Translations under genes and position numbers: made by a program
Assembly: GCA_963845755.1 (NCBI GenBank)
Contig: CAWJTV010000020.1
Location: forward strand, 608,001-672,000
Direction of reading: 5' to 3'
Origin: an uncultured Planctomycetota bacterium
Lineage (GTDB): Bacteria > Planctomycetota > Planctomycetia > Isosphaerales > Isosphaeraceae
Length of the DNA stretch: 64,000 nt
The notes under the pieces: generated by a model
Databases searched by the model: none
What the model saw: only the letters and a program-made list of their open reading frames with translations
Told to the model about the DNA's origin: nothing
In this document: positions 4,398 to 4,439 of the stretch, piece after piece
Numbering within the stretch: the stretch's first letter is position 1
How the letters are laid out: the number at the start of each line of letters is the position of its first letter

Positions 4398-4439
4398 TTG
4401 ACAGACTGTCCCTGCTGGCGATATTTGTAGTCATGCGAC
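4398..4439 (+). promoter_or_regulatory. Sigma70-like promoter with overlapping putative BlaI operator, copy 1
   Basis: TTGACA (4398-4403), N14, then GCGATATTTGTAGTCATGCGAC (4418-4439), 30 nt before the blaI ATG. It contains the TGTAGT half-site of BlaI/MecI boxes. Confidence 0.75.

Follow-up and report, generated by a model that had tools for sequence, protein, structure and literature searches.

A repeated promoter motif in a planctomycete genome is very probably the landing site of a neighboring BlaI-family repressor paired with a WD40-bearing protease

Repressors of the BlaI/MecI/CopY type are known from several switches that resemble the locus examined here. In the BlaI-BlaR1 and MecI-MecR1 systems of Staphylococcus aureus and Bacillus licheniformis, an M56 protease is co-encoded with the repressor and the operators lie over the repressor's own promoter and that of a second operon; in the available sections of that account, B. 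licheniformis BlaI contacts DNA through W39, T43, T46, R50, and K54 (PMC1935004). The CopY/CopR repressors use a 16-bp consensus, RNYKACANNYGTMRNY, with two operators per promoter that overlap promoter elements (PMC7253601, accessible text), and the Clostridium thermocellum repressors BlaI_0696 and BlaI_1845, found among paralogs, control small regulons composed of themselves and a few distal targets (PMC8457756, accessible text). The PVC DUF1501-PSCyt2/PSD1 module places a twin-arginine-like DUF1501 protein beside PSCyt2/PSD1 with WD40 genes nearby, and the available text describes it without a regulator or a link to MoxR, DUF58, or vWA proteins (PMC3542564); DUF1501 is also a known neighbor of planctomycete WD40 genes (PMC5587647, available part). 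In the MoxR-vWA beta-propeller ternary conflict systems, as described in the accessible portion of the source, vWA is fused to a C-terminal beta-propeller and the MoxR P-loop is often GXXXTAKS (PMC7159879).

We analyzed a 64-kb stretch of DNA, referred to below as the window, which lies on contig C20 of assembly G000 (14.27 Mb, 64% GC, 88% complete). Its features are collected in Table 1, where SF denotes a Pfam-less exported family with 27 loci in G000, 14 of them in the window. An earlier note on this DNA had described a 22-bp motif in three copies, each behind a perfect TTGACA and with differing spacers, and this was borne out: GCGATATTTGTAGTCATRCGAC was found without mismatches at 4418-4439 (+), 38226-38247 (-), and 39323-39344 (-), with TTGACA lying 14, 13, and 14 nt upstream and the intervening spacers unrelated. 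No other match with up to three mismatches was present in the window, and 100 dinucleotide shuffles of the window gave no matches. Across the genome, only 4 exact matches were recorded, with 1 more that differs at 3 positions and 3 that differ at 5, so the motif is rare, and the genome-wide abundance that the note had named as counting against an operator was not encountered. While the 22-mer is real, its boundaries were misplaced. It runs from position 2 to position 16 of a first putative operator box (box A), crosses a 4-nt spacer, and stops 3 nt into a second (box B'), cutting both, and conservation extends past it to CGTAAYC and also upstream of the -35.

Table 1. Features of the window, with position, strand, and the basis on which each was assigned
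Feature	Position	Strand	Basis
Box 0, upstream stretch TCCGAA-N4-GTCGTT, running into the -35	4384..4399	+	52-site logo, register scores
Sigma-70-type -35 TTGACA of blaI promoter	4398..4403	+	sequence, promoter scan, register scores
Box A GGCGATATTTGTAGTC, main BlaI/MecI/CopY-type 16-bp predicted operator	4417..4432	+	logo, consensus score
Box B' GACGTGTTCCGTAACC, second family-type box	4437..4452	+	20 bp after box A; over predicted transcript start
blaI-family repressor, 134 aa (Penicillinase_R)	4470..4874	+	PF03965, E 1.9e-26
BlaR-like M56 membrane metalloprotease with ~21 WD40 blades	4871..8919	+	PF05569, E 7e-26, 91.5 bits
DUF1549 (PSCyt2)/DUF1553 (PSD1) protein	8950..10419	+	Pfam search
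DUF1501 protein, twin-arginine-like N-terminus (by eye)	10556..11956	+	Pfam search
EF-hand repeat protein, signal-peptide-like N-terminus, two ORFs in assembly	11953..13658	+	Pfam search
Two SF genes, end of blaI operon	13853..15753	+	SF homology
Two SF genes, end of leftward operon	16063..18057	-	SF homology
vWA + GATase1-like, DUF4175-like, BatA/vWA membrane-anchored proteins (several frame breaks)	18125..26510	-	Pfam search
MoxR AAA+ ATPase (AAA_3 + AAA_lid_2; P-loop GVPGLGKT), DUF58 protein, one SF gene	26717..29503	-	Pfam search
Tandem array of SF paralogs	29668..35312	-	SF homology
Peptidase C13-like exported protein	35326..36297	-	weak Pfam match, E 0.018, below cut-off
First three SF genes of leftward operon	36311..39186	-	SF homology
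Decayed boxes A and B before third SF gene	37224..37258	-	score -7.2; background 99th percentile -11.9, maximum -2.0
Second full unit	box 0 38280-38265, TTGACA 38266-38261, box A 38248-38233, box B' 38228-38213	-	matrix, pattern
Third unit, upstream stretch degenerate	TTGACA 39364-39359, box A 39345-39330, box B' 39325-39310	-	

The anatomy of the promoter was characterized from a logo of 52 non-redundant TTGAC-bearing sites in the fetched loci, a set that includes 5 of the 7 strong sites of G000 and leaves the two leftward window copies outside. Seven of 59 matrix matches were excluded as TTGAC was absent at 12-14 nt; five of these, in front of one SF subfamily, formed a type of their own, a sixth had a 15-nt spacer, and the last was a transposed fragment. 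Conservation falls into four blocks, namely an upstream stretch TTCCGAAGAATTTCG, the TTGACA, box A, and, after RTRC, GACTTGATTCGTAACC. The sole promoter-like site between 3600 and 4600 is TTGACA-16-GATATT (4398-4425), and its predicted -10 hexamer (4420-4425) is enclosed in box A, with A2 and T6 kept in 49 of the 52 sites at spacings of 15-17 nt. The earlier note had seen correctly that one half of the motif is degenerate, to which an explanation can be added: the strict TACA left half is replaced in box A by the -10 hexamer. When the CopR-CopY consensus was slid along the 44 sites with the commonest spacer, it scored 10.9/12 at box A, 9.4/12 at +20 (box B'), 8.25/12 at -33, and 7.8/12 at -20. 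This last peak is the GTTGACA on the -35, which precedes box A by 20 bp and doubles as a left half-site of the family consensus (RNYKACA). At these spacings (-20, 0, and +20), the boxes would line up on approximately one side of the helix. Box B can also be read in an alternative palindromic register (4434-4449), and box A is identical at 12 of 16 positions to the S. aureus mecA operator as printed in PMC1935004. More than one box is present and the repressor's own promoter is overlapped, as in other operators of the family. Box 0 may be an extra repressor site, an UP-like element, or a relic of the operator of another BlaI class.

The 134-aa repressor scored 93.1 bits against PF03965 (cut-off 22.6), which places it in the family. 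Its recognition helix WAPTTTKTLLRRL keeps the DNA-contacting Thr, Thr, and Arg, and W41, T45, T48, R52, and K56 align in that order to the five B. licheniformis contact residues, all of which are kept; the best PDB sequence matches were MecI and BlaI. It falls below the curated NCBIfam cut-offs for BlaI and MecI, as its partner does for BlaR1, and its best NCBIfam score was to CopY_TcrY (TIGR02698; 75.3 bits against a cut-off of 121.95). Tyr-Met stands in place of the S. aureus cleavage dipeptide (101-102), which is not kept, and inactivation may proceed by direct cleavage or through a co-inducer.

The partner protease retains an intact HELAH and is devoid of a penicillin-binding domain; its C-terminal 928 aa consist of WD40 repeats, and the match to blaR1_generic (60 bits against a cut-off of 400) covers the protease part only. 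A frame break occurs near 5470 in this assembly. Of 10 relatives, 5 have the gene as a single frame exceeding 1300 codons and 5 have it broken, at differing places, which points to an assembly error. In the intact G030 protein, four hydrophobic segments were noted with HELAH between the third and fourth, the M56 arrangement of HExxH after three helices and a fourth before the sensor. By the BlaR1 topology, the protease would presumably lie inside and the WD40 propellers outside. Compared with other genera, the WD40 part (6150-8919) is 22-48% identical in most pieces, the protease core 58-75%, and MoxR mostly 81-93%; the WD40 divergence may reflect ordinary repeat drift or ligand diversification. 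In one relative (G087; L106, contig C92), DUF1549 comes directly after blaI, the locus has no M56-WD40 gene, and the operators are intact, so its regulon would be either under constant repression or inducible through a protease encoded at another place.

Downstream of the protease gene, PF07583, PF07587, and PF07394 were all matched above cut-off, giving an adjacent DUF1501 and PSCyt2/PSD1 module. No beta-lactamase or alternative penicillin-binding protein was detected among the scanned ORFs of the window or the genes that follow the 52 sites (4 of which were classed as other). Signal peptides were judged by eye. Divergent from blaI, at 602-3690 (-), lies an ECF sigma factor with C-terminal WD40 repeats in two ORFs, a position that is not conserved in relatives.

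Attribution to the local repressor could not be taken for granted, since 23 blaI-family loci occur in G000 (24 matches, with one gene in two pieces). The earlier note had proposed a genome-wide matrix scan, and the scan, using a matrix built from the promoters of 12 blaI orthologues in genomes other than G000, returned 7 sites at 30.3-55.6 bits, followed by the next at 17.8; the best matches of 12 column-shuffled matrices reached 14.0-24.4 bits. The strong sites head blaI, four SF genes, and two WD40 genes, and the local blaI promoter is the only blaI promoter among them. The copies are therefore not restricted to the three that had been described: SF paralogs at C20:10183 and C12:71259 and membrane-anchored WD40 genes at C20:269633 and C11:810396 carry four more strong sites outside the window, and the window itself holds a decayed fourth copy, whose counterpart is intact at the matching place in G046, a genome of the same genus. 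When all 23 blaI upstream regions were scored with a matrix that includes the local site, the local one was high, the 63%-identical C32 paralog reached 10.3, and the rest were at or below -15.9.

Most of the 23 blaI paralogs were observed to have inverted or direct repeats of their own near a TTGACA-16/17-TAnnnT promoter, which suggests that a helix-to-operator code may be readable across the blaI expansion in G000. In the class with a GYTT(V/A)LK helix, 27 promoters (L145-L171) show a very regular operator, TACGAA-N4-TTCGTA/T, arranged in tandem around the -35, and a second regulon appears mappable from it.

We assessed the distribution of the unit across 121 family genomes. The composite pattern was present in 15 genomes and its reversed control in none, and the same 15 genomes are those that hold an orthologue of this BlaI at 76% identity or above; the co-occurrence is partly circular, the pattern having come from these very promoters, and related genomes do not count as independent cases. 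BlaI matches at E<=1e-25 occur in 38 of 121 genomes. The orthologue is split into two pieces in G025 and in G030, the G034 protein, with 65% identity across residues 4-97, was left unplaced, and the 14 orthologues in the tree form a single clade with support of 100/99. Because each orthologue's own promoter carries the pattern, non-self copies are the fairer count, and these were found in 11 of the 15 orthologue genomes against 0 of the 106 others, which were searched by exact patterns and not by the matrix; by the matrix, G055, G081, and G089 have non-self sites as well. One exception was noted, G026 (60% complete), with a strong site and no orthologue found. Among 185,579 species genomes, the composite pattern occurs at 30 loci, all in Planctomycetota, Isosphaerales, Isosphaeraceae or Singulisphaera, so the window very probably comes from an isosphaeracean planctomycete. 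More distant BlaI relatives (55-64%) have a clean GACTA-N6-TAGTC palindrome before their own gene in 11 of 15 cases. The short core TTGTAGTCRTRCGAC was rejected as a marker, since at one mismatch it occurs in 91 of 121 genomes with similar control counts; exact short-core matches in G014, G037 (C13), G046 (C12), G054 (C561), and G083 have neither TTGACA nor box B and were discarded as chance matches, so a 17-mer tally of 16 of 121 genomes contains at least one false positive.

A 40-kb span contains the two operons in nine other genomes (G030, G033, G036, G037, G044, G055, G079, G081, and G089), where they are convergent or co-directional and each has its own operator. In G046, the two operons are on separate contigs, and in G025 only part of the locus is covered; the G054 region L082 held no reference gene, and the G116 cluster lay outside the comparison. 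A site directly before the C13-like gene in G030, G081, and G089 indicates that the operator belongs to the operon rather than to one duplicated SF gene.

The earlier note had also argued for selection rather than recent duplication, and this claim is supported, with one qualification. Mean pairwise identity over the 44 sites was 0.92 for box A, 0.77 for box B', 0.65 for the upstream stretch, 0.34 for the spacer, and 0.40 downstream, so the boxes are kept and the spacer is not. However, the two leftward window copies head tandem SF paralogs and are not duplication-independent; together with the decayed copy before the third gene, they point to an old promoter-plus-gene duplication that spread the unit. 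The genes that follow the 52 sites comprise 26 SF, 15 blaI, 3 C13-like, 2 WD40, 1 BatA, 1 DUF58 fragment, and 4 others, and the unit thus also precedes genes of several unrelated kinds. At C5:800351 (+) of G000, a decayed look-alike, in which the upstream stretch and TTGACA are accompanied by the left half of box A, was seen before a DUF1549/1553 paralog 55% identical to the window's protein. In four genomes (G033, G025, G026, and G089), one SF subfamily is preceded at ~50 nt by a variant (L060, L069, L070, L073, and L085) that combines a box-B-like element with the right half of box A and has no TTGACA. Outside the usual cargo, a strong site (L118, G033:C4) precedes a multi-pass membrane protein that appears glycosyltransferase-like by eye.

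The SF proteins match no family in Pfam or NCBIfam, and a PDB sequence search gave nothing below E 0.17. Among the 120 listed of 344 homologs, only 'hypothetical protein' names were found, and the Atlas clusters are unnamed. The structure model has a pLDDT of 88.9; its best match to known structures had Z 7.2 and rmsd 3.6 with 97 of 279 residues aligned, and no Foldseek match reached E<=0.001, although a missing match to a predicted model does not prove a new fold. Neighboring SF paralogs are mostly 25-38% identical to each other. Outside the window, a strong site was found at only 2 of 13 SF loci and a weak one at 1, so the SF family as a whole is not tied to this regulator. A different upstream region of ~100 bp (GCTGCAATCTCCTTGACAGCCGCTC..., spacer included) is near-identical in four other SF genes, at C12:151625 (+), C3:207861 (+), C8:5172 (+), and C42 (-, upstream of 401751), and resembles a promoter-gene unit that was copied recently and is controlled in another way. 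In the C13-like protein, the GH motif is kept and TSASG or TPASG, also seen in five relatives, stands at the place expected for a catalytic Cys; the protein is possibly a pseudo-enzyme or serine variant. Upstream of the leftward operon, at 41527-54731 (-), lie large ORFs, several of them beta-helix/NosD-like, in which no operator copy was found, and an ORF at 59383-60426 (+) matches the eCIS core domain (PF13699, E 5e-22).

From promoter anatomy, site distribution, family membership, co-occurrence, and synteny, all established at the sequence level, the repeated motif is very probably the landing site of the neighboring BlaI-family repressor. We consider it highly likely that this adjacent BlaI has a multi-box operator with the motif at its core and that the locus is a BlaI/BlaR-type derepression switch whose sensor consists of WD40 propellers instead of a penicillin-binding domain. 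The view of the earlier note that this is the operator of the local BlaI and defines a regulon is supported by matrix specificity, co-occurrence, and the conservation of boxes over spacer. Repressor dimers on two phased boxes, perhaps aided by the half-site on the -35, would block RNA polymerase by covering the -10 and the transcript start. Through its C-terminal propellers, the four-helix M56 zinc protease, co-transcribed with blaI, would sense an extracytoplasmic ligand and inactivate the repressor by cleavage or a released co-inducer; occlusion and protease relief are modeled on the repressor family as described in the accessible parts of PMC1935004, PMC7253601, and PMC8457756. The DUF1549/1553-DUF1501-EF-hand module, the C13-like-MoxR-DUF58-vWA module, the SF copies, and the two stand-alone membrane-anchored WD40 genes would then be derepressed together.

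Alternatives to this single-repressor reading were weighed against the same sites. Under a dual control, which we regard as unlikely, the local BlaI would bind box A only, and box 0 and box B (register +17) would serve the GYTT(V/A)LK class. The operator of that class, TACGAA-N4-TTCGTA abutting the -35, was present in 27 of 27 promoters examined, most of which have a box running into TTGAC as box 0 does; two GYTT-class paralogs occur in G000, and over the 44 sites the class consensus scored 9.2/12 at box 0 (-33) and 9.8/12 at box B (+17), a fit about as good as that of the family consensus. Yet box 0 has C where the GYTT class has A, position 6 of the +17 register is C in 51 of 52 sites where the class mostly has A, and the conservation three bases past the +17 box (AYC) is explained by the +20 family register. 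The GYTT helix was also found at none of 40 other BlaI loci in G081, G089, G055, and G054 (5, 16, 10, and 9; three matches not included), and these genomes nonetheless keep the upstream stretch or box B. It is very improbable that the real regulator is instead a paralog of the same helix class (C32:60579, 63% identical, or C11:512796, 46%), with the local BlaI redundant or cross-talking: genomes that hold just the 55-64% class lack the composite pattern, and a further protein of that class (E<=1e-25 to the local BlaI) is missing from 10 of the 15 genomes with the pattern, even though the C32 promoter carries a related box (GACTAGACTTCTCGTC, scoring the 10.3 given above) and cross-binding between BlaI and MecI is documented in the available part of PMC1935004.

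The copies might also be relics of promoter-plus-gene duplication, or a conserved strong promoter with no repressor role. The tandem paralogs behind two window copies would fit such relics, as would the C20:269633 copy, which resembles the blaI promoter even in its spacer, the decayed copies at window position 37258 and C5:800351, and the fact that part of box A is the -10 element. Set against these, the spacer identity of 0.34 compares with 0.92 and 0.77 for the boxes, the unit stands before at least five unrelated gene types and is restricted to genomes with this BlaI, and only 5 of 204 TTGACA-16/17-[TG]AnnnT promoters in G000 share the upstream stretch; we therefore give this reading very little credence. 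Least credible is a promoter for the divergent ECF sigma factor or a small structured RNA leader, which we consider extremely improbable. The ECF gene does diverge from blaI, box B can be drawn as a 5-bp hairpin, and CGTAA resembles the -10 elements of ECF promoters. However, a sigma-70 pair at normal spacing is present, and no ECF gene lies beside blaI in the covered regions of relatives except one downstream in G025. The folding z-scores of the three leaders (0.35, -0.17, and 0.15) give no folding signal, no Rfam match was found in the window, and hairpin pair 5:12 of box B is A-C in 16 of 52 sites.

Under the preferred reading of a local BlaI operator, the regulon would seem to respond to a signal other than penicillin. 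This signal is probably a protein, peptide, or glycan, given that no penicillin-binding domain and no beta-lactamase were found. Its purpose would most likely be the inducible build-up of a periplasmic or surface multi-protein apparatus on a non-beta-lactam cue, a weaker step that goes beyond the operator itself. More speculatively, and with considerable doubt on our part, the WD40 receptor protease could detect a foreign or damaged surface protein or glycan and switch on, through one BlaI, an exported apparatus of variable repertoire, made of the copy-number-variable, fast-diverging SF proteins of unseen fold, a MoxR-DUF58-vWA chaperone, and the DUF1549/1553-DUF1501 proteins, with the membrane WD40 proteins as decoy or auxiliary receptors. 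If true, planctomycetes would have an inducible surface machine for recognition or defense, and the DUF1501 module could for the first time be approached through its regulation.

As regulation, the scheme is textbook, and a BlaI box before blaI is ordinary. The value lies in the linkage, with one repressor coupling the DUF1549/1553-DUF1501 genes, the MoxR-DUF58-vWA operon, and the exported SF family, three gene sets whose functions are not known or merely guessed. Deleting one 134-aa gene should switch on all three without knowledge of the signal, and the long-open question of DUF1501 module function becomes more testable. Planctomycete BlaI paralogs also become distinguishable by helix class and operator, and WD40 propellers are added to the sensors fused to BlaR-type proteases. 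In the literature searched, mostly non-subscription and supplements aside, no published account of a BlaI/M56-WD40/DUF1501/MoxR wiring was found.

Compared with the described systems, the locus shares with BlaI-BlaR1 and MecI-MecR1 the repressor family, the contact residues, the operator (box A matching OPmecA at 12/16), the co-encoded M56 protease, and operators over its own promoter and a second operon (PMC1935004, available sections). Unlike BlaI-BlaR1, it has ~21 WD40 blades as sensor, no beta-lactamase or penicillin-binding protein in the regulon, and a repressor that is one of 23 paralogs. Identity as a beta-lactam switch was rejected, with no penicillin-binding sensor and no beta-lactamase or penicillin-binding protein found. 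The CopY/CopR consensus fits box A and box B', and two operators likewise overlap elements of one promoter (PMC7253601, accessible text). Unlike CopY/CopR, the locus has a protease partner, and no copper export genes were seen in the regulon. CopY carries a C-terminal cysteine metal-binding motif, which is absent from the 134-aa BlaI; a copper repressor identity was set aside on this absence, the score below cut-off, and the lack of a copper export operon. The C. thermocellum repressors offer GACTAT-like half-sites and two inverted-repeat pairs per target, as seen here, and self-regulated regulons with few distal targets (PMC8457756, accessible text), whereas the cargo here is far larger (two operons that together span ~35 kb, plus satellites), the sensor is WD40, and the envelope is of Gram-negative type. 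The twin-arginine-like DUF1501 protein beside PSCyt2/PSD1 with WD40 nearby recalls the PVC module as described in the available part of PMC3542564, with the difference that WD40 is fused here to M56 instead of PSCyt1, and no PSCyt1 match was seen. The ternary conflict systems likewise combine MoxR, vWA, membrane-near propellers, and uncharacterized alpha+beta proteins in planctomycetes (PMC7159879, accessible portion). Identity with them was rejected, as the vWA proteins here have no propeller match, the P-loop is GVPGLGKT, and DUF58 is present; judged by sequence, the leftward MoxR genes correspond to a classical MoxR-DUF58-vWA operon.
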